Shown: in pieces, positions 54,042-64,000 of the stretch | Layout of the letters: each line of letters starts with the position of its first letter | Numbering within the stretch: position 1 is the first letter of the stretch | Assembly: GCA_033551855.1 (NCBI GenBank) | Contig: JAWSUI010000009.1 | Span: 1-64,000 of the forward strand | Source: Deferrisomatales bacterium | GTDB lineage: Bacteria > Desulfobacterota > Deferrisomatia > Deferrisomatales > JACRMM01 | Direction: 5' to 3' | DNA: 64,000 nucleotides | Position numbers and translations under genes: made by a program | Notes under the pieces: generated by a model | What the model was told of the DNA's origin: nothing | Databases searched by the model: none | The model's input: the letters and a program-made list of their open reading frames with translations, nothing else

Positions 54042-56942
54042 TCACCCCCCCAGCCGCTGTTCGACGGCCTGCTTGTAGAAGAGGTAGTGGCCGGTGGTGA
54101 CGAAGGCGCCGCAGTGCTCGCGGGCAAACCCGGCGTCCAGGAACACGCGGGTGACGAAGGGCTCGTCCCCCCCGCCCGAGAGGCGAGCCTCACGGATCCG
54201 GCGCCGGGTCTCGGCAACGGGGTCGCCCACCTCTCCGCTGCGGATCGATTGGTCGCCCCACGTGATCCGGTACCCCGCTTCCTCCCCCTCTCCCTTCCCC
54301 GTCCCGCGCTCGATCACCAGGCCCTCCGGCAGGAGACCCAGGGCCCGCACCCGGCTCAGATGTTCGCGGGTCGCCGTGCGCGCATGCCACTTCCCCTCCC
54401 GGAGCAAGGAGTGGATCCTCAAGACCTGCCTCAGGCTCTTGCCCCGGAGAGGGCTGCCGTGCTGGCCCCCCACGTCGGCAACCGTTCCCTCCAGGAAGAG
54501 CAGGAGCCTCGCGAGGCGATAGGGGAAGCGCTCGGCGGGGCCTGCGACCCGAGAGAGATGGCCCACCTCGTCCACGACGAGGATCGTCTCCCGGCCGCCT
54601 TCCTCCCAGAGGAAGACGTCGATGAGGCCCGCGCACGCCGCCGCGAAGGCGGCCTTCAAGGGGGCGAGCTCCGGGTCCGAGCTCTCCACGCGGGTCTCGA
54701 CCCGGGTGTGGGGCCCCACGCCGCAGAGGAAGCGCAACAAGCCCTCCCGGCTTGGGAACGTACGGCAGCGCAGCTCCCCCGGGCCGCTCCGATCCAGGAC
54801 GTAGGCCCCGGTCGCCGACATCCCGACCAGCCGCCGGCGCAGGCCTTCGGGAAACCGCCTCCCCCCGAGAAGGCCGGCCGCCGCAGCCAACTCCCGCTGG
54901 AGGCGGCGGGGACTACCCCGGAGGACTCCCACCTTGTGCAGCGGTGCGAAGACTTGGAGGCTCGTAGGGTCCGGGCTCCGCAGCAGGAAGGGCACCAACA
55001 CCTCCTCCGCGAGAGCTTGCAGCGCATCGGGGCCGTGCCATCGGCGGCAGAAGGTCTCCCCCCAGCTGTTCGAGAAGACGGCCCTCACTTCCTCCGAACC
55101 GCCTCCCTCCCCCCACAGGCTCGGGACGATCAGCAGCCTGTCCGGCACGGGATCCGCCGAGAGGGCCTCGTGAGACGGCTCCGAGACCCGTGTGCGTTCC
55201 ACAAGTTCCGTCAGCCGGCGGATCAGGGCCTCCAGATCCGCGGCGGGGACCCCCCCCGCCAACCCCCTGCAGAAGACGCGGGTGCGGGTCCCCACGAGCC
55301 GGTTCCGGGCGGCCCAGACCAAGAGCTCCAGCGGGTCGTCGGAACTCCGGAGGAGCTCCCGCTCGGCCCCACCCACGGTGGGGGACGCGACCCGACCGCG
55401 AAAGAGCCTCCACGGGACCTCCCCGTCGGGGAGCCGCTCCTGGTGCAGGGACACGCAGGGCTCCTCCACACCGCCTCCCACGAGGTGCAGGACCTCCACC
55501 TTGTCCTGTTCCCGACCGTAGACGGCTCGCAGCTTGCGCCCCAGGACGTCCAGGTCGCGCGGGGTGATCCGCGGGGTCTCCTCGCCCGTGCCGAGGGCCT
55601 CGCGGATCCGCTGATAGGTGCGGAGGAAGTACCGGTCCACCTCCCTCGCCAACCCCGCGACCCACTCGAGCCTCCACGTCTCGAAGGCGTTCAGGCAGCG
55701 CAGGCGCCGCTCGTCCCAACCCCAGGAGGCGACATACTCCCGCAGCACGGCTTCATCCGACCCTAGCGACAGGAGGGTGGGGGTAAAACGCAGGGAAGGA
55801 TCCAGGCGAACACCGGTCTTCAGGTAGAAGCACCGTGCCAGGAGGTCCTCTGCCGCGGCCTCCCCGTGAACGCGGTAGTGGGCCAGCACCTCGTCGAAGA
55901 GCAGGCGGTAGGGGTCGACCCGCTCGCCCGCGAGCACCCGCTCCTTGAGCCGCTCGCACAGGGGGCGGCCTTCGGGACCGGAGCGCGCCCCCCTTTCGAG
56001 AAGCCCGAGCTTGAGCGCCGACTTGAAAGGGGACTTCCAGCCCTTCACGATCTGCCACACCACCGCACCGAAGAGCTCCCCGGGGGGGACCCGCTCCACG
56101 CAGCCCAGATCGACGTACCCTCCCGCGTCGAAAGCCGAAGACTGCCGCAGCAGGTCGCAGTGGCGACGGTACTCTTCCGGGCCGACCCCGGGGGGCACCA
56201 GCCGCCAGAAGGGCGCCTTGCCCGCCAGGGGAACGCCCGTGCGGTAGAACTCCTCCTTCAACAGCGCCCCCATCGCCGAGCCGCAGCCCTCGGGCCCGGC
56301 CTCCCCGAAGTCGTTGCGGCAGACACTCTGCGTTGCCTGCAGGAAGAGGTGGACCTCCAGGCGGCAGTGGCGGTTCATCCAGGCTTCCACGGCGGCCACC
56401 TTGCGTCGAAAGAGCTCCAGGCCCCAGCCGGAGACGGCCGGCCCGTGGCACACCCAGACGTCCAGGTCGGACTCCCCGGAGAAACCGATGGTGCCCGCAC
56501 TTCCCATGACGGCCACCAGCTCCACCGCGGGCCGCAGGACCCCCGAGGGGCGAGGGTCGGCTCCGGGGAAGTGCCGGCGGGCGAGCCGGATCTCCTCCCG
56601 GTGCGGAGAATAGCCCGAGACCCCGACCGGGCACTGGGGGTCGTCCACGTAACCGGGCAGGCCGGGCCGATTCAGGTGGAGAAGCAGGGGCAGCAGGCGC
56701 AGGGCCTCCTCCGCCCTCGGACCGAGCTGGGCTTCGATGCGCCGGCGGCGGAAACGGTCATATGCCGCGAAGGCCGCCTCCGCGGCCCGGGCACCGGCCA
56801 CGGGAGCATCGGCCTGCAGGGACAGGAACCCCTTCGGGGGGAAGCTCTCCCGAGAAGGCGCCAGGCTGGATGCGTAGCTCACAAGACCCTCCGTTCGCCC
56901 CGAAACACCCCTTGCACCTACCATCGGCCGCGGGGCACCCAC
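54042..56942 (-). CDS. cyaA: Class I adenylate cyclase
   Basis: LLPLLLHLN.PGLPGYV, MGSAGTIG...SDLDVW, LLKEEFYRT, AGKAPFW, SPFKS, CFYLK; start uncertain. Confidence 0.85.
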   Translation of the reverse strand: MGAPRPMVGARGVSGRTEGLVSYASSLAPSRESFPPKGFLSLQADAPVAGARAAEAAFAAYDRFRRRRIEAQLGPRAEEALRLLPLLLHLNRPGLPGYVDDPQCPVGVSGYSPHREEIRLARRHFPGADPRPSGVLRPAVELVAVMGSAGTIGFSGESDLDVWVCHGPAVSGWGLELFRRKVAAVEAWMNRHCRLEVHLFLQATQSVCRNDFGEAGPEGCGSAMGALLKEEFYRTGVPLAGKAPFWRLVPPGVGPEEYRRHCDLLRQSSAFDAGGYVDLGCVERVPPGELFGAVVWQIVKGWKSPFKSALKLGLLERGARSGPEGRPLCERLKERVLAGERVDPYRLLFDEVLAHYRVHGEAAAEDLLARCFYLKTGVRLDPSLRFTPTLLSLGSDEAVLREYVASWGWDERRLRCLNAFETWRLEWVAGLAREVDRYFLRTYQRIREALGTGEETPRITPRDLDVLGRKLRAVYGREQDKVEVLHLVGGGVEEPCVSLHQERLPDGEVPWRLFRGRVASPTVGGAERELLRSSDDPLELLVWAARNRLVGTRTRVFCRGLAGGVPAADLEALIRRLTELVERTRVSEPSHEALSADPVPDRLLIVPSLWGEGGGSEEVRAVFSNSWGETFCRRWHGPDALQALAEEVLVPFLLRSPDPTSLQVFAPLHKVGVLRGSPRRLQRELAAAAGLLGGRRFPEGLRRRLVGMSATGAYVLDRSGPGELRCRTFPSREGLLRFLCGVGPHTRVETRVESSDPELAPLKAAFAAACAGLIDVFLWEEGGRETILVVDEVGHLSRVAGPAERFPYRLARLLLFLEGTVADVGGQHGSPLRGKSLRQVLRIHSLLREGKWHARTATREHLSRVRALGLLPEGLVIERGTGKGEGEEAGYRITWGDQSIRSGEVGDPVAETRRRIREARLSGGGDEPFVTRVFLDAGFAREHCGAFVTTGHYLFYKQAVEQRLGG

Positions 56943-57245: not shown

Positions 57246-57593
57246 ATGCGGCAAACTGTCGTCTGGGCGCTGTTGGGGGTGGCCGTGTGGAGCTCCGCGG
57301 CCTGGGGTCTGGGGTCCCGCCCGAACGGCCCCCCCGCCCCCCGCTCCGACAAGGACGCGCTCCAGCTCATCGCCGAGGCGGTCCAGGGCGGCGAGATCGA
57401 CGCCGACACGGCGGTGCTGTACCGGGTGTACGCGGTCATGGACGGTGCGAAGCTGCCGTCCCGGTTCCACAGCACCGTGCCCCTGCGCGACGGCACCCCG
57501 ATCCTGCGGGAGGCCAGGAGCCGGTACCCGGACCTCCGGCCCGACGTCCGCGAAGCCTTGGACCCGTATCTCTTTCCCGGAGGCAGACCATGA
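57246..57593 (+). CDS. Small exported protein homologous to the propeptide of the downstream metalloprotease
   Basis: Signal peptide; GEIDADTAVLYRVYA..LP..RDGTPILR aligns with GELDRATADLYRLYA..LP..RCGTPILR in the next gene. Confidence 0.8.
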   Translation: MRQTVVWALLGVAVWSSAAWGLGSRPNGPPAPRSDKDALQLIAEAVQGGEIDADTAVLYRVYAVMDGAKLPSRFHSTVPLRDGTPILREARSRYPDLRPDVREALDPYLFPGGRP

Positions 57594-59686
57594 GGGTGCG
57601 GTGGGTTTTCGGAGCGGCCCTGGCCCTGGGGCTCCTGGGCGGGAGCTACGGGGCCCACGGCACCCCCCGCTCCGGGCCCCTCACCGGGCTCGACACCCGT
57701 CCGGCGGCGCTCACGGCCGCCGGGGAGCTCGACCGGGCTACCGCCGACCTGTATCGGCTCTACGCGCTGATGGCCGCCGACCGGCTGCCCCGTGAGCTCC
57801 GGGCCGAGTCGCCGGAAGGCACGGCCGCGAAGATCGGTCTACCCCTCGCCTCCGGGCCTGCCGGCCACCGGTGCGGCACGCCGATCCTCCGCGCGGTCCG
57901 GGCCCGTCTGGACGAGCTCCCGGCCGAGCTGCGGGCGGAGGCCGAGGAGCTGCTCGCCCCGCCCCGGCCGGCGGCGGCCCGTTCGGCCGGGCAGGTCGGG
58001 GGAAAGGACTTCTCCCCCGTGCTCCTCAACTGGGTCGTCACGGAGAACTTTTCCATCCAGTGGGGGCCGGACCTGACCAACGAGGACGGCTCGCTCCCGG
58101 TGCGCGACCTGGACGCCAACGGCATCCCGGACGTCGTCGAGCGCTGGGCGGAGCTCTTCGAGGCCAGCTACCGTACCGTGGCCGAGGTGCTCAAGCCGGG
58201 GGTGCCGGACACCGTCCCCGAGGGAACGGCGCTGGCGTCCCACCGGGTCCCCGTCTACATCGCGAACTCCTCGCCGGATCAGCTCTTCGAGAACATCGAC
58301 CCCACGTCCGGGATCTACGCCTTTACCGTCAGCAGCCCGATCCCCTACATCGTCGTCAACAACGACCTCCGGTTCGTGCCCCCCAACGACGAGGGCCCCA
58401 CCGCAGAGGACAGGATTCGAGGGGCCATGAAGATCACCGCGGCCCACGAATTCTTCCACGTGATCCACTTCCTCTACGAGCCCTCCGTCTGGAACGTAAT
58501 CGAGGACGACTGGTGGCTGGAGACCAGCGCCACGTGGATGGAGGACGAGGTCTTCGGCGGGGTCAACGACTACCACCAGTACTACCCCGGCTGGACCTTC
58601 TTCGTGGAGGCAGGTCTCCCGGTGCCCTTCGGTGACGACCACTACGTGACCCGGGCCTACGGTGGGGCAATCTTCGCCAAGTACCTCTCAGAGCACGTGG
58701 CGGGGCGTCGGATGATGGGGGAGCTCTGGGACCTCATCCGCCCGGCCCCAGCCCCCGGCCGGCGCATCCTCCAGGCCCTGGATGTCTGGGCTGCTTCCCG
58801 AGGGTTTTCCGACCTCGAGGAGATGTTCCTCGGCTTCACCGCAGCCAACGCGGTGATGGACTACGAGGAGGGGGGAGCCTACGGAGCGGTGCCGATCCGC
58901 AAGGACTCCCTCACGGCGGACAGCACGACGGACCTGCTGCCGCCGGTCTTCCCGCCACAGCCGCAGCGGATCCCGGCGCCGAGCTACCTGGGGGCCACCT
59001 ACCTGCTCGAAACGGGCGGGGGCGGGCCCGGTGTCCAGGTCGCCCTGTCCGGGGCCCCCGCCGAGCGCTGGGGGCTTTCTCTCGTGCTGGCCCACCCCGA
59101 GGGGTACAGCCTGGCGCTCGGGGCGAGCGCGCCCGACGGCGAAACGAGCATTGCGGTCACGTCGCTCGTCGACTTCGACCGCGTCTACGCGATACCCTCG
59201 TACCTGACCCCACCCGTTGACCCCGCTGCCTCGGTGTCGTACGCCACCACGGCGACCGCAGTGGCAGCCGGTGATCCGGTTCCCCCGGGAGGGGTGGGGG
59301 CCCTCTCCCTCACACCGGCGGTCGGAGGCTTCGACGCCTCCTGGTCGCCGCCGGGGGACCCCGACGCGGCGGGCCACGTGGTGCGCTGGAAACTCGAGAA
59401 TGAGGGAACGTTCCTCGGCAGCCGGACCTTCGTCGCCCCCGTGACCGCGGCGGAGGTGCGCGGACTCGACGTGGGCACCTACGACGTGGATGTTTTCGCC
59501 TACGACCGGACCGGGAACCGGGGGCCCTCCCCGGCCGTCCTCCCCCAGGTCGTCGTGAGCGAGGCCGGGCGAGAGGCGGCGATTCCACCCGCCGACGAGA
59601 TCATCCTGGGGGCAGGCCAGACCGTTCCGACCTCCGGCGGTGGCGGCGGTGGTGGCGGGTGCTTCCTGACGTCCCTGGGCCCCTGA
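57590..59686 (+). CDS. Secreted gluzincin-type metalloprotease (MXAN_6640-like) with FN3-like domain and Gly-rich/Cys C-terminal tail
   Basis: Signal peptide; RCGT; DLDANGIPD; TAAHEFFH..WWLETSATWMED; FN3-like W...Y.V.V.AYD..GN; ends GGGGGGGGCFLTSLGP. Confidence 0.85.
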   Translation: MRVRWVFGAALALGLLGGSYGAHGTPRSGPLTGLDTRPAALTAAGELDRATADLYRLYALMAADRLPRELRAESPEGTAAKIGLPLASGPAGHRCGTPILRAVRARLDELPAELRAEAEELLAPPRPAAARSAGQVGGKDFSPVLLNWVVTENFSIQWGPDLTNEDGSLPVRDLDANGIPDVVERWAELFEASYRTVAEVLKPGVPDTVPEGTALASHRVPVYIANSSPDQLFENIDPTSGIYAFTVSSPIPYIVVNNDLRFVPPNDEGPTAEDRIRGAMKITAAHEFFHVIHFLYEPSVWNVIEDDWWLETSATWMEDEVFGGVNDYHQYYPGWTFFVEAGLPVPFGDDHYVTRAYGGAIFAKYLSEHVAGRRMMGELWDLIRPAPAPGRRILQALDVWAASRGFSDLEEMFLGFTAANAVMDYEEGGAYGAVPIRKDSLTADSTTDLLPPVFPPQPQRIPAPSYLGATYLLETGGGGPGVQVALSGAPAERWGLSLVLAHPEGYSLALGASAPDGETSIAVTSLVDFDRVYAIPSYLTPPVDPAASVSYATTATAVAAGDPVPPGGVGALSLTPAVGGFDASWSPPGDPDAAGHVVRWKLENEGTFLGSRTFVAPVTAAEVRGLDVGTYDVDVFAYDRTGNRGPSPAVLPQVVVSEAGREAAIPPADEIILGAGQTVPTSGGGGGGGGCFLTSLGP

Positions 59687-59734: not shown

Positions 59735-60163
59735 TCAACCCGGTGCACTACCTTGCAGCCGGGTCACCGCCTCTCGCAGATACCCCGGCACCGGCGTGGG
59801 GGCGTGGGACTCCCGGTCCAGGACCACGTAGATCTCCACCCCCTCGGCCACCAGGCGGCCCGTCGCCTCCTCCGTGGCCCGGAGGCCGAAGGTGAGGGAG
59901 GTGTTGCCCACGCGGGTGACGCGGACCCCGCAGACGAGGGTCTCCCCGAAGCCGCCGGAGGAGCGGAAGTCGCACTCCGCCCGGGCCAGCACCAGGTCGT
60001 GGCCGCGGCGGGTCAGTTCGGCGTAGGGCAGGCCCAGCGCCTCCAGATAGTCGGTGATGGCGTCGTCGAAGTACACGAAGTAGTTGGCGTTGAACACGTG
60101 TCCCTGGGTGTCGGTGTCCGAAAAACGGACCTTACGCTGGTAGACGACCGGGTACTCCGCCAT
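59735..60163 (-). CDS. Acyl-CoA thioesterase (4HBT/YbgC family)
   Basis: VRFSDTDTQGHVFNANYFVYFD. Confidence 0.92.
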   Translation of the reverse strand: MAEYPVVYQRKVRFSDTDTQGHVFNANYFVYFDDAITDYLEALGLPYAELTRRGHDLVLARAECDFRSSGGFGETLVCGVRVTRVGNTSLTFGLRATEEATGRLVAEGVEIYVVLDRESHAPTPVPGYLREAVTRLQGSAPG

Positions 60164-60187: not shown

Positions 60188-61570
60188 TCAGCCCGTTCCC
60201 GGCGGACGGGGCCCTTCCCCGCCGCGCGGCCCCTCCACATCCCCTGCCAGCGCCCCGGCGCCCATCAAGGCGAGGCCGCGCCACCCGACCTCTAGGAGCC
60301 GTGCCAGGCCCAGCTCGCGCCCCAGCGCCCCGAGCAGGTACCCCCGGGCCGCGACCTCGAAGGAGAAACCCGGGTGGAGGAGGCGGGCGGTTCCTTCCAC
60401 CGTGATGAGGGCCTTGGCCAGCAGGCCGTACTTGCGGGGAAAGCTGACGCGGTGCCGGTGCACGGCGCCCAGGATGCCCCGGCCGATGCGGGAGAGGGAC
60501 GTCTCCCCCAGGGAGGGGCCCAGGGCCTCGTCCATGATCCGGCCCACGGCCTGCGCGAAACCCGCCGCCTCCTGGGGCGGCACGTGCACCCCCAGCCCCG
60601 CCAGGTGGCGCAGGGCGAGGGGGGCATCCCGGGAGAGCAGTCCGGCCAGGGCGCCCAGCACGTCCCGGCGCTCCCGCGGGCTCAGGCGGCCGGTGATGCC
60701 GAAGTCGAGGTACGCGATCTCGCCCTGTGGGGTGATCAGGAGGTTCGCAGGGTGGAGGTCCGCGTGGAACAGGCCGTCCCGGACCACCTGCTGGAGAAAG
60801 GCCCGGGCGCCCCGTTCCGCCAGCTCGGCGTAATCGCTGCGGCCGCGGGCCGCGGCCGCGGAGATCTTCACCCCCTCCACGTACTCGGCCGTCAGGACCC
60901 GTCGGGTGGTCCAGCCCCAGTGGACGCGGGGGATCCGGATGCCGGGAAAGTCCCGGAAGTTCCTCCCCAGGGCGCCGGCCACCTCGGCCTCGCGCCGGAA
61001 GTCGAGCTCCTCCTCGAAGGTCTCGCGGAGCTCCCCCCAGAGGGCGGCCGCATCCAGGCGGCTCCCCAAGGGCGTCAGGCGCACCAGGAAGGGGAGCAGG
61101 TCCGCCGCGAGGCGCAGGTCCCGCCGCATGGACGCCGCTGCCCCCGGGCGCTGGACCTTGACGGCCACCGCCTCCCCCCTCGGGAGCACGGCCCGGTGGA
61201 CCTGGCTCAAGGAAGCCGCGGCGAGGGGCTGCGGGTCGAAATCCCGGAACAGCCGGGCCAGGGGCGCACCCAGCTCGGCTTCCACCCGCCGGCGAACTTG
61301 ATCGAAGGCTACCGGCTCGGCCCGGTCCTGGAGGCGCTCGAGCTCGGCCAGGGCGTCGGGAGGCACCAGATCGGGGCGGACCGAGAGCAACTGCCCGAGC
61401 TTGATGAATGCCGGGCCCAGGCGCTCGAAGGCCCGGCGCACGGACGCGGCCAGAGGGGCCCAGGAACGGGAGCGCACGCTGCCCGCAGCTCCCCAGGCCC
61501 CCGCCCACGCCAGGGCGGCGAGCACCGCTCCCAGCCGGACCGCTCCCTCAACCCTCCCCACGGCCGGCAA
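60188..61570 (-). CDS. ABC1/UbiB (AarF) family atypical kinase
   Basis: LGPAFIKLGQLLSVRPDL, AAASLSQVHRA, VAVKVQRPG, FHADLHPAN, LDFG. Confidence 0.92.
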   Translation of the reverse strand: MPAVGRVEGAVRLGAVLAALAWAGAWGAAGSVRSRSWAPLAASVRRAFERLGPAFIKLGQLLSVRPDLVPPDALAELERLQDRAEPVAFDQVRRRVEAELGAPLARLFRDFDPQPLAAASLSQVHRAVLPRGEAVAVKVQRPGAAASMRRDLRLAADLLPFLVRLTPLGSRLDAAALWGELRETFEEELDFRREAEVAGALGRNFRDFPGIRIPRVHWGWTTRRVLTAEYVEGVKISAAAARGRSDYAELAERGARAFLQQVVRDGLFHADLHPANLLITPQGEIAYLDFGITGRLSPRERRDVLGALAGLLSRDAPLALRHLAGLGVHVPPQEAAGFAQAVGRIMDEALGPSLGETSLSRIGRGILGAVHRHRVSFPRKYGLLAKALITVEGTARLLHPGFSFEVAARGYLLGALGRELGLARLLEVGWRGLALMGAGALAGDVEGPRGGEGPRPPGTG

Positions 61571-62503: not shown

Positions 62504-63304
62504 ATGGATCTCGCCACCATTCTCGGTCTCGCCGCCGGCGTAGGACTGATCGTTTCGGCCCTCCTCCTGGGGGGGGCGCCGCTGGCCTTCGTGGACCTCC
62601 CGGCGCTGCTCATCGTGCTCGGGGGGATGACGGCCGTAACCTTCGTCATGTTCCCCTTGCGGACCGTCCTCGGGTCGATCCGGGTCGCCGTCAAGGCTTT
62701 TCGAGAAGACCCGTGGAACCTCGATGCGATCATCGATCAGATGGTAAGTCTCTCCCGCCTGGCCAGGACCAACGGCATCCTCGCCCTGGAGGACGCCGAG
62801 AGGGAGATCCAGAATCCCTTTCTCAAGAAGGGCATCCAGCTCGCCGTGGACGGCAACGAAGAGGAACTCATCCGGTTCATCATGGCCACCGACGTGAGCT
62901 TCACGAGGGAGCGCCACCTGATCGGCCAGAAAGTGTTCCGCCAGTTGGGCGCCATGGGGCCGGCCTTCGGGATGATCGGCACCCTGATCGGCCTGGTCCA
63001 GATGCTGCGCACGTTGGACGACCCCTCCTCCATCGGCCCGGCCATGGCGGTGGCTCTCCTCACGACCTTCTATGGGGCCCTCCTCTCGAACCTGGTGTTC
63101 CTCCCCATCGCCAACAAGCTGGAGTTTCGAAGCAAGGAGGAGGCGCTGGCCAAGCAGGTCGTGACGGAAGGAATCATCTCCATCATGCAGGGCGCCAACC
63201 CCAAAGTACTCAAGGACAAGCTCGAGGCCTTCGTGTCCCCGACGATGCGCCGGGACAAGCGCGACGGCTCTCCGACCGTGATGACCACCGAAGAGGCGGC
63301 GTAG
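62504..63304 (+). CDS. motA: Flagellar stator A subunit (PomA/MotA)
   Basis: MDLATILG, ARTNGILALE, PAFGMIGTLIGLVQML, AVALLTTFYG. Confidence 0.93.
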   Translation: MDLATILGLAAGVGLIVSALLLGGAPLAFVDLPALLIVLGGMTAVTFVMFPLRTVLGSIRVAVKAFREDPWNLDAIIDQMVSLSRLARTNGILALEDAEREIQNPFLKKGIQLAVDGNEEELIRFIMATDVSFTRERHLIGQKVFRQLGAMGPAFGMIGTLIGLVQMLRTLDDPSSIGPAMAVALLTTFYGALLSNLVFLPIANKLEFRSKEEALAKQVVTEGIISIMQGANPKVLKDKLEAFVSPTMRRDKRDGSPTVMTTEEAA

Positions 63305-63307
63305 CCC

Positions 63308-64000
63308 GTGCAGCCGAACCCGCCGTGGTTGAGCCGGGACCCTCGGGAGGAGGCAGAGCACGCCGTTCCGGCGTGGACGGTCACCTTCGCCGACCTGGCC
63401 CTCCTGCTCCTGACGTTCTTCGTCCTCCTCCTGTCCTTCGCCAACCTGGACGCCCAGAAGTTCCGAGACATGCTCGGCAGCGTGAAGGACGCCTTCGGGG
63501 TGCAGAAACAGACCGTCGGCGACGCCTCCGCTCGGGCCGCGGGGGCGATCGACCTGTCGGCACACCAGGGCGCCGGCTGGCGCCTGGACCCTGCTCCCGG
63601 GGAGGCAGGCCACTCCCCACCGATGGATCAAGCCCTCACCATCATCCGGGCGAGATTCGAGGGCTTGGGGGGCGGTACGGAGGTCCTGGCGGGAGACGAG
63701 GAAGTCACCGTGCGGGTGGCCGGAAAGCTTCTCTTCCTCGCGGGCTCGGCGGAGCTTCGCCCGGAAGCCGCCGAGATCATGGCCCGCGTGGGGGGTGTGC
63801 TCCGGCAGTACGTCTTCGACCTGTACATCCTCGGGCACACCGACGCAGTTCCGTTCGAGACGGCCCAGTTTCCCAGCAATTGGGAGCTGAGCTCGGCCCG
63901 GGCGGCGGCCGCCCTGCGCCACCTGGTGGCGGAAGGGGCCGACCCCCGGCGCCTGGTGGCCCTGGGGCTCGCGGACACCCGACCCATCGAACCCAACACC
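63308..64000 (+). CDS. motB: Flagellar stator B subunit (PomB/MotB), truncated by the window end
   Basis: WTVTFADLALLLLTFFVLLLSF, GHTD, SNWELSSARA OmpA-like domain; absent from the ORF track because there is no stop in the window. Confidence 0.92.
   Translation, partial: MQPNPPWLSRDPREEAEHAVPAWTVTFADLALLLLTFFVLLLSFANLDAQKFRDMLGSVKDAFGVQKQTVGDASARAAGAIDLSAHQGAGWRLDPAPGEAGHSPPMDQALTIIRARFEGLGGGTEVLAGDEEVTVRVAGKLLFLAGSAELRPEAAEIMARVGGVLRQYVFDLYILGHTDAVPFETAQFPSNWELSSARAAAALRHLVAEGADPRRLVALGLADTRPIEPNT

Follow-up and report, generated by a model that had tools for sequence, protein, structure and literature searches.

In the stretch of Deferrisomatales DNA analysed here (64,000 nucleotides of contig JAWSUI010000009.1, hereafter the window), a small gene coding for 115 amino acids (57246..57593, + strand) is a free-standing copy of the N-terminal helical domain of the protein encoded immediately downstream, an MXAN_6640-like zinc metalloprotease of 698 amino acids (57590..59686, +). 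The small gene was defined by homology, conservation and a structural model, and the protease by a match to NF045524 and an AlphaFold2 model. The small protein is probably an exported, propeptide-like inhibitor acting in trans, which would dock on the activated protease and block its zinc with Asp82. The observations behind this proposal are the homology of the two proteins, their domain boundaries, the conservation of the small gene, the coupling of the two genes, and the gluzincin-type catalytic motif and fold of the protease.

A sequence-only reading of the locus had claimed that the 115-residue ORF resembles the N-terminal region of the protease whose start it overlaps through ATGA, and three measures agree that the resemblance is significant. 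BLASTP aligned residues 49-111 of the small protein with residues 45-124 of the protease (27 of 80 positions identical, one 17-residue gap, E 2e-8); the Smith-Waterman score of the pair was 98, against a mean of 36.6 for shuffled sequences (sd 5.4, maximum 69), and none of 5000 shuffles reached 98; profile-profile comparison of the small-protein family with the attached-domain family gave a probability of 99.1% (E 9.4e-19, 75 columns). The locus thus shares with stand-alone propeptide-like inhibitors a separate gene whose product has its homolog in the N-terminal segment of a protease. At the DNA level the two genes are alike in only one patch of 57 columns, and the small gene is accordingly no fresh duplication. 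The codons for Asp82 of the RDGT motif of the small protein (GAC, 57489..57491, +) and for Cys95 of the RCGT motif of the protease (TGC, 57872..57874, +), respectively a candidate zinc-blocking residue and a candidate cysteine switch, align to one column, and the replacement of Cys by Asp noticed in that first reading is genuine. Asp occupies this column in 19 of the 20 rows of the small-protein family alignment. Equally correct was the remark that the small protein lacks HExxH, the motif found in the protease as HEFFH at residues 286-290.

Inspection by eye indicates a probable signal peptide at residues 1-21 of the small protein (57246..57308, +), without a lipobox Cys, and a lipobox Cys in the signal of several of its relatives. 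AlphaFold2 predicts a four-helix domain at residues 38-111 (57357..57578, +), with helices at 38-47, 53-65, 84-96 and 99-109 and block means of pLDDT of 92-98 over residues 41-110; the model thus has the small protein folding by itself into four helices. In the protease model, these correspond to the helices at 36-43, 49-61, 97-105 and 112-122 of the attached domain (residues 36-124; 57695..57961, +; delimited by BLASTP and the model), a candidate propeptide with a low-confidence insertion of 17 residues. The small protein ends exactly at the start of the protease linker, i.e., at the domain boundary, and this, together with the four shared predicted helices, argues for an inhibitor. A profile scan of the small protein returned no Pfam or NCBIfam match, and neither I9, I29 nor any other Pfam inhibitor or propeptide family was matched among 52 members. 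The model of the small protein had no Foldseek match at E 0.001, an Atlas search with the small protein gave no usable match, and neither the small protein nor the N-terminal domain had a VIA match at Z of at least 5 (best Z 4.6), a result that does not imply a new fold.

The protease matches NF045524 (MXAN_6640_HExxH, NCBIfam) with an E-value of 3.7e-37 and 128.6 bits (131.1 bits in another run), which is below the curated cut-off of 140 bits, and it is, on its sequence, a close relative of the MXAN_6640 family. The catalytic domain covers residues about 140-432 (58007..58885, +), as judged from invariant columns and fold matches, and contains the HEFFH motif (58445-58459, +) and Glu311 (58520-58522, +), an invariant residue whose position suggests the third zinc ligand. 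H286, E287, H290, E311 and Y357 are invariant in an alignment of 43 relatives, and the combination of HExxH with a downstream Glu, the role of E311 being assigned from its position, is that of gluzincins. The full-length AlphaFold2 model (pLDDT 88, pTM 0.89) points the same way: its best fold match is lugdulysin (7bb9; Z 18.6, rmsd 4.7, 307 aligned residues; lugdulysin range Z 17-19), followed by M1 aminopeptidases (Z 13-15) and Grimontia collagenase (Z 13.2), and the modelled catalytic domain is a gluzincin fold. The NF045524 match, the lugdulysin fold and Atlas look-alikes carrying DUF6055 or Peptidase_M30 link the enzyme to the MXAN_6640/DUF6055/M30 group (lugdulysin, 7bb8/7bb9), from which it differs by its sub-threshold score, by an identity of only 10-11% to lugdulysin and by an N-terminal domain without a clear solved match. 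Peptidase M30 of Pfam gave no match to the protease at E up to 1, so that this likeness is one of fold only. In the model the catalytic domain is followed by a beta domain, a fibronectin type III (FN3) domain (residues about 562-659; 59273..59566, +; profile and fold matches) and a Gly-rich CFLxxL tail; by sequence, solved structures match the protease only within the FN3 domain. Apart from Cys95, the only Cys of the protease is Cys691 in the tail. A search of the window's genome (G000) found only one MXAN_6640-like protease, a point in favour of the proposed inhibitor.

A GGAGG ribosome-binding-like site lies within the final codons of the small gene and is followed by the ATGA stop/start overlap (57579..57593, +), and the two genes are presumably coupled in translation. 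GC3 is 0.90-0.91 in both ORFs, and a pattern search at the locus found no match to a sigma-70 promoter or to a terminator. A profile built from 20 small proteins was used to search the genomes of the order and matched 13 of 21, of which 12 hold a strong stand-alone copy and one (G019) an attached domain only. Across 401 genomes of the phylum, with 10 candidates scored per genome, 10 matched, and those outside the order were only G025 and G068, two of the five genomes of one unrelated family. The free copy is accordingly present in 14 genomes, 12 in the order and two in that family. The neighbourhood reported for the window proved general: in each of the 14 genome pairs the small gene lies directly 5' of the protease gene and overlaps it by 4 bases (the protease of G016 is cut by a contig end), an invariable association that supports an inhibitor of the adjacent enzyme. 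Two metagenome pairs (L024, L026) have the same 4-base overlap. Close homologs carry the source labels Deferrisomatales or Deferrisoma. Three loci of one set and two of the five in another encode small proteins that the tally already included, and were left out of it; L028 was rejected as a free copy, being a distant, longer ORF, and a third search for homologs brought nothing new.

The protease also occurs by itself. All six genomes of family f3 have it and the free copy was found in none of them, from which it follows that the free copy is dispensable, a point against an inhibitory role; in three genomes of family f1 (70-97% complete) the core of neither gene was found. Second protease copies without a free copy occur in G001, G008 and G068, and several relatives hold two or three matches to the protease family per genome. 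At one locus of G001 (L032, C10:29000-38000), one free copy is followed by two tandem protease paralogs with Cys in both attached domains; this locus and L033 show a second long, similar-looking ORF context 3' of the protease.

In nine relatives from the order, identity to the window's genome is 58-76% for the small protein, 52-87% for the catalytic domain and 48-76% for the attached domain (48-53% in eight of the nine). Conservation of the small gene thus roughly equals that of the catalytic domain and exceeds that of the attached copy, as would suit an inhibitor. Nei-Gojobori dN/dS of the mature small gene is 0.143/0.575 = 0.25 (G000-G002) and 0.037/0.187 = 0.20 (G010-G020), and for the same two pairs it is 0.17 and 0.16 in the catalytic domain and 0.35 and 0.48 in the attached domain, all values in which the high GC3 compresses dS. 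Judged by this conservation, the 115-residue ORF is a real conserved gene. The probability that it is a decaying 5' duplication fragment or a spurious ORF, the outcome that would have undone the sequence-only reading, is negligible, considering that the ORF is intact in 14 genomes at dN/dS of 0.2-0.25, that its stop position is conserved and that it has little DNA likeness to the protease gene.

The free copy of the order is nevertheless no recent offshoot of its neighbour. It scores 98 against the neighbour's attached domain and 123-153 against five compact domains of other lineages, and a recent duplication of the neighbouring protease gene was rejected on the ground that the free copy is closer to those distant domains. 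In the order the free copy is of old standing and retains the compact form, the attached copy having gained the insertion. The small gene is, as the sequence-only reading had it, a paralog of the N-terminal domain of the protease; it is a conserved one, and no recent copy of the adjacent gene. In G068 (family f9), the highest score of the free copy, 212, is against the attached domain of its own neighbour. In a tree of 50 of 70 rows (three long-branch and 17 near-redundant rows dropped; f9 rows compositionally unusual), f9 free and attached copies group together (99/96), apart from the free copies of the order (99/98); an AU test on 78 columns did not reject a single origin of the free copy (p 0.063).

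The lower score against its own neighbour, with no sign of cognate matching in the order, weighs against an inhibitor. The free copy could instead be a folding chaperone or escort for the catalytic domain, one that has taken on a job poorly done by the diverged attached copy, with any inhibition incidental. One-to-one translational coupling would suit this role, as would the order's attached copy, with its insertion and faster evolution beside a compact free copy, and propeptides commonly help folding (PMC6993865). However, in f9 the attached domain, itself compact, closely resembles the free copy, which has been kept all the same, the f3 genomes have the protease and no free copy was found there, and a conserved potential zinc ligand suits blocking better than folding; a chaperone is consequently unlikely, if far from fanciful. 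The free copy could otherwise be a broad-spectrum shield against same-family proteases of other cells or of paralogs, rather than a cognate inhibitor. Its closeness to the domains of distant members, the two or three family matches in several relatives and the lipoprotein-type signals on some free copies lend themselves to such a shield. Yet in all 14 genome cases the free copy sits beside a protease gene, with no orphan copies or arrays in the genomes searched, and synteny ties the locus to a housekeeping-type gene, that of a class I adenylate cyclase (window 54042-56942, -), which is divergent from the pair and stands back to back with it across the order at every locus long enough to show it. 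A shield is for these reasons quite improbable.

The helical domain extends far beyond the pair. A homolog search of 1.84 billion representatives gave 1402 matches at E up to 0.001, of which the best 150 were examined. All 30 long matches scanned from these 150 fit the MXAN_6640 profile, six of them above its cut-off, and on these profile matches MXAN_6640-like HExxH...E proteases usually carry the four-helix domain at the N-terminus; that its place is otherwise N-terminal to such catalytic domains is a further argument for an inhibitor. The domain corresponds to no Pfam or NCBIfam family and to no clear solved match. Further apparently complete free copies among the best 150 of the 1402 are P0080, P0082, P0086, P0099, P0101, P0104, P0149 and the P0225 cluster, whose five members share an end and a lipobox-like signal. 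P0149, P0225 and P0227-P0230 form a second group of seemingly complete, lipoprotein-like free copies, in which Cys is retained (KCGTP) and the C-terminal tail is acidic.

In the Cys/Asp column, the free copies of the 14 genome pairs have Asp in 13 and Gly in one (G025), and the latter is awkward for an inhibitor; their partner attached copies, readable in 13, have Cys in ten, Asp in one (G008), His in one (G025) and Asn in one (G068). Among 38 close proteases, 34 cover the column, with Cys in 30, His in two, Asp in one and Asn in one. Among 25 distant proteases found with the protease as query, 23 cover it, with Asp (9), Ala (4), Glu (3), Ser (3), Gly (2), His (1), Met (1) and no Cys. The conserved Cys or Asp in an N-terminal segment that characterizes cysteine and aspartate switches is therefore present here, and is variable in distant proteases. 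In 86 HExxH rows from the best 150 of the 1402 matches, a set biased by the Asp-rich small-protein query, the column holds Glu (18), Asp (11), Cys (10), Ser (10) and a mixed rest including many non-ligands, Asp or Glu often standing one column later. Cys or His nonetheless concentrates there, in 33 of 57 rows as opposed to 8 of 57 in the next-best column, and in a second set in 12 of 84 as opposed to 4. Such a concentration fits a fourth zinc ligand and, with Cys in 30 of the 34 close attached copies, favours an inhibitor; the switch-type position that had been suspected does behave like a metal-ligand position. What did not survive is the idea that the free copy alone has Asp, as an oxidation-insensitive redesign. 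Asp is present in attached domains as well (G008; 9 of 23 distant ones), as are His and Asn, and among other apparent free copies P0149 and the P0225 cluster have Cys and that of G025 has Gly. These residues leave the idea without a basis, and Asp is a common state of the helical domain.

Part of these data fits a structural role. The switch residue lies two positions before an invariant helix-capping Thr, and Asp, Asn, Ser, Cys and Gly are typical turn residues; a turn role would count against zinc blocking, as does the Ala, Ser, Gly or Met in 10 of the 23 distant attached domains. In the protease model, Cys95 is the only beta-bridge residue before position 136 (DSSP), which places its partner outside the helical domain, a point in favour of an inhibitor; that partner could be linker residue 136, which would weaken the point. 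Rather than a propeptide that is cut off, the helical domain might be a lid that stays in place or a module for interactions; the free copy would then serve as an adaptor, a decoy or a regulatory subunit, and Cys/Asp would be a residue of the helix turn and no zinc ligand, as the non-ligand residues in many distant copies would allow. P0083, P0108 and P0193 consist of two or three tandem helical domains, each followed by a Cys-flanked helix, without a protease domain, and in P0162 the helical domain is far from the catalytic motif; the M1 enzymes, the closest gluzincins matched, are not known to have such a propeptide. Against this stand the lone Cys that those 30 of the 34 close secreted proteases retain, with no second Cys in the core to pair with it, the nature of the substitutions among close relatives (His, Asp and Asn), and the lower-confidence basic linker that follows the domain in the model, and a permanent lid is on balance unlikely.

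Inhibition in trans would proceed in four steps. The small protein and the protease would both be exported; the protease would be made as a zymogen, its cleft closed by the attached domain and its zinc bound by Cys95; a cut in the Arg/Pro/Ala-rich linker (residues about 123-138) would free the cap; and the co-translated free copy would bind in trans to the surface that the cap had left, with Asp82 where Cys95 had been. Premature or stray activity would thereby be kept in check, whether in the periplasm or on the cell surface. Export, zymogen processing, zinc contact, binding and inhibition are the inferred parts of this scheme; both metal switches and stand-alone propeptide inhibitors have precedents elsewhere (PMC6949598, PMC6993865, PMC2873492).

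According to the parts of the sources available, Spi of Streptococcus pyogenes is a small propeptide analogue, encoded by an adjacent and transcriptionally coupled gene, that inhibits SpeB (PMC2873492, PMC3462683). The likeness lies in a propeptide analogue encoded next to its protease; the difference is that SpeB is a C10 cysteine protease and Spi is thought to be cytoplasmic, whereas here the enzyme is a zinc gluzincin and the small gene lies upstream, with an export signal (by eye) and an all-helical product. Stand-alone inhibitors of the I9 type (POIA1, the yeast peptidase B inhibitor, SUB1-ProM, TgMIC5) mimic propeptides in trans, SUB1-ProM from a syntenic locus beside subtilase genes (PMC6993865), and I29 counterparts include CTLA-2alpha, crammer and BCPI (PMC4089206). 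These too come from genes of their own and imitate a protease propeptide, but as described there they act on serine or cysteine proteases, have unrelated folds and no metal-ligand switch, and their inhibition is demonstrated where ours is conjectural. Switches of the Cys, Asp and His types block the zinc with a fourth ligand, as in mirolysin and ulilysin (CG motif), astacin, fragilysin-3, karilysin and BepA (PMC6949598, bioRxiv 2020.07.07.192476). A conserved Cys-Gly motif and the alternation of Cys and Asp within one family recall the present case, while those switches, in the parts available, act in cis and mostly in metzincins, as opposed to a helical domain of 80 residues on a gluzincin, both attached and free, whose zinc contact is presumed. 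Potempins of Tannerella forsythia are exported inhibitors of 98-132 residues encoded immediately 5' of proteases, and PotA, which inhibits karilysin, has aspartate-switch elements (PMC9890683). They share with the small protein its probable export, its size class, its place upstream of a metalloprotease gene and, in PotA, the Asp-switch elements; PotA is however an OB-fold beta-barrel, and the part of PMC9890683 available describes no derivation from a propeptide.

The literature searched, which covered few subscription journals and did not include MEROPS, yielded nothing on MXAN_6640 and no metalloprotease case of a stand-alone propeptide-like inhibitor. The pair is apparently undescribed for the MXAN_6640-like family, as the earlier reading had supposed, the general design being known from cysteine and serine proteases. 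If the proposal is true, the propeptide-derived inhibitors known for serine and cysteine proteases gain a metalloprotease counterpart, and a protease group that is so far uncharacterised has its unnamed pro-domain (1402 representatives, E up to 0.001) defined. The scaffold occurs in nature with Cys, Asp, His or Asn, both in attached and in free form, and lends itself readily to a comparison of switch chemistry, and the 80-residue protein would be a handle for producing and assaying MXAN_6640-like enzymes. It is quite possible, if short of probable, that a large gluzincin group with an undescribed four-helix pro-domain and a single, interchangeable zinc-blocker (Cys, Asp, Glu, His, Asn) has more than once split off that domain as a free exported inhibitor, which would make a new family of trans metal-switch inhibitors.

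The Gly-rich linker and CFLxxL tail of the protease (59633..59683, +) resemble the start of the CFI-box-CTERM domain of relatives, carried in full by P0085, and may be a sorting or anchoring signal akin to a cut-down CFI-box-CTERM. Three proteins of the window's genome, the protease included, have a Gly run and CFLxxL at most 8 residues from the stop; the other two are an FN3/ZU5-like surface protein and a subtilase (C23:2912-4954 and C38:22369-24288; L053, L054). Downstream, genes for a 4HBT-type thioesterase (window 59735-60163, -) and an ABC1 atypical kinase (60188-61570, -), both ordinary, converge on the end of the protease gene, and the ORFs at 62504-64000 (+) may be MotA/MotB-type stator genes, which they resemble by eye.
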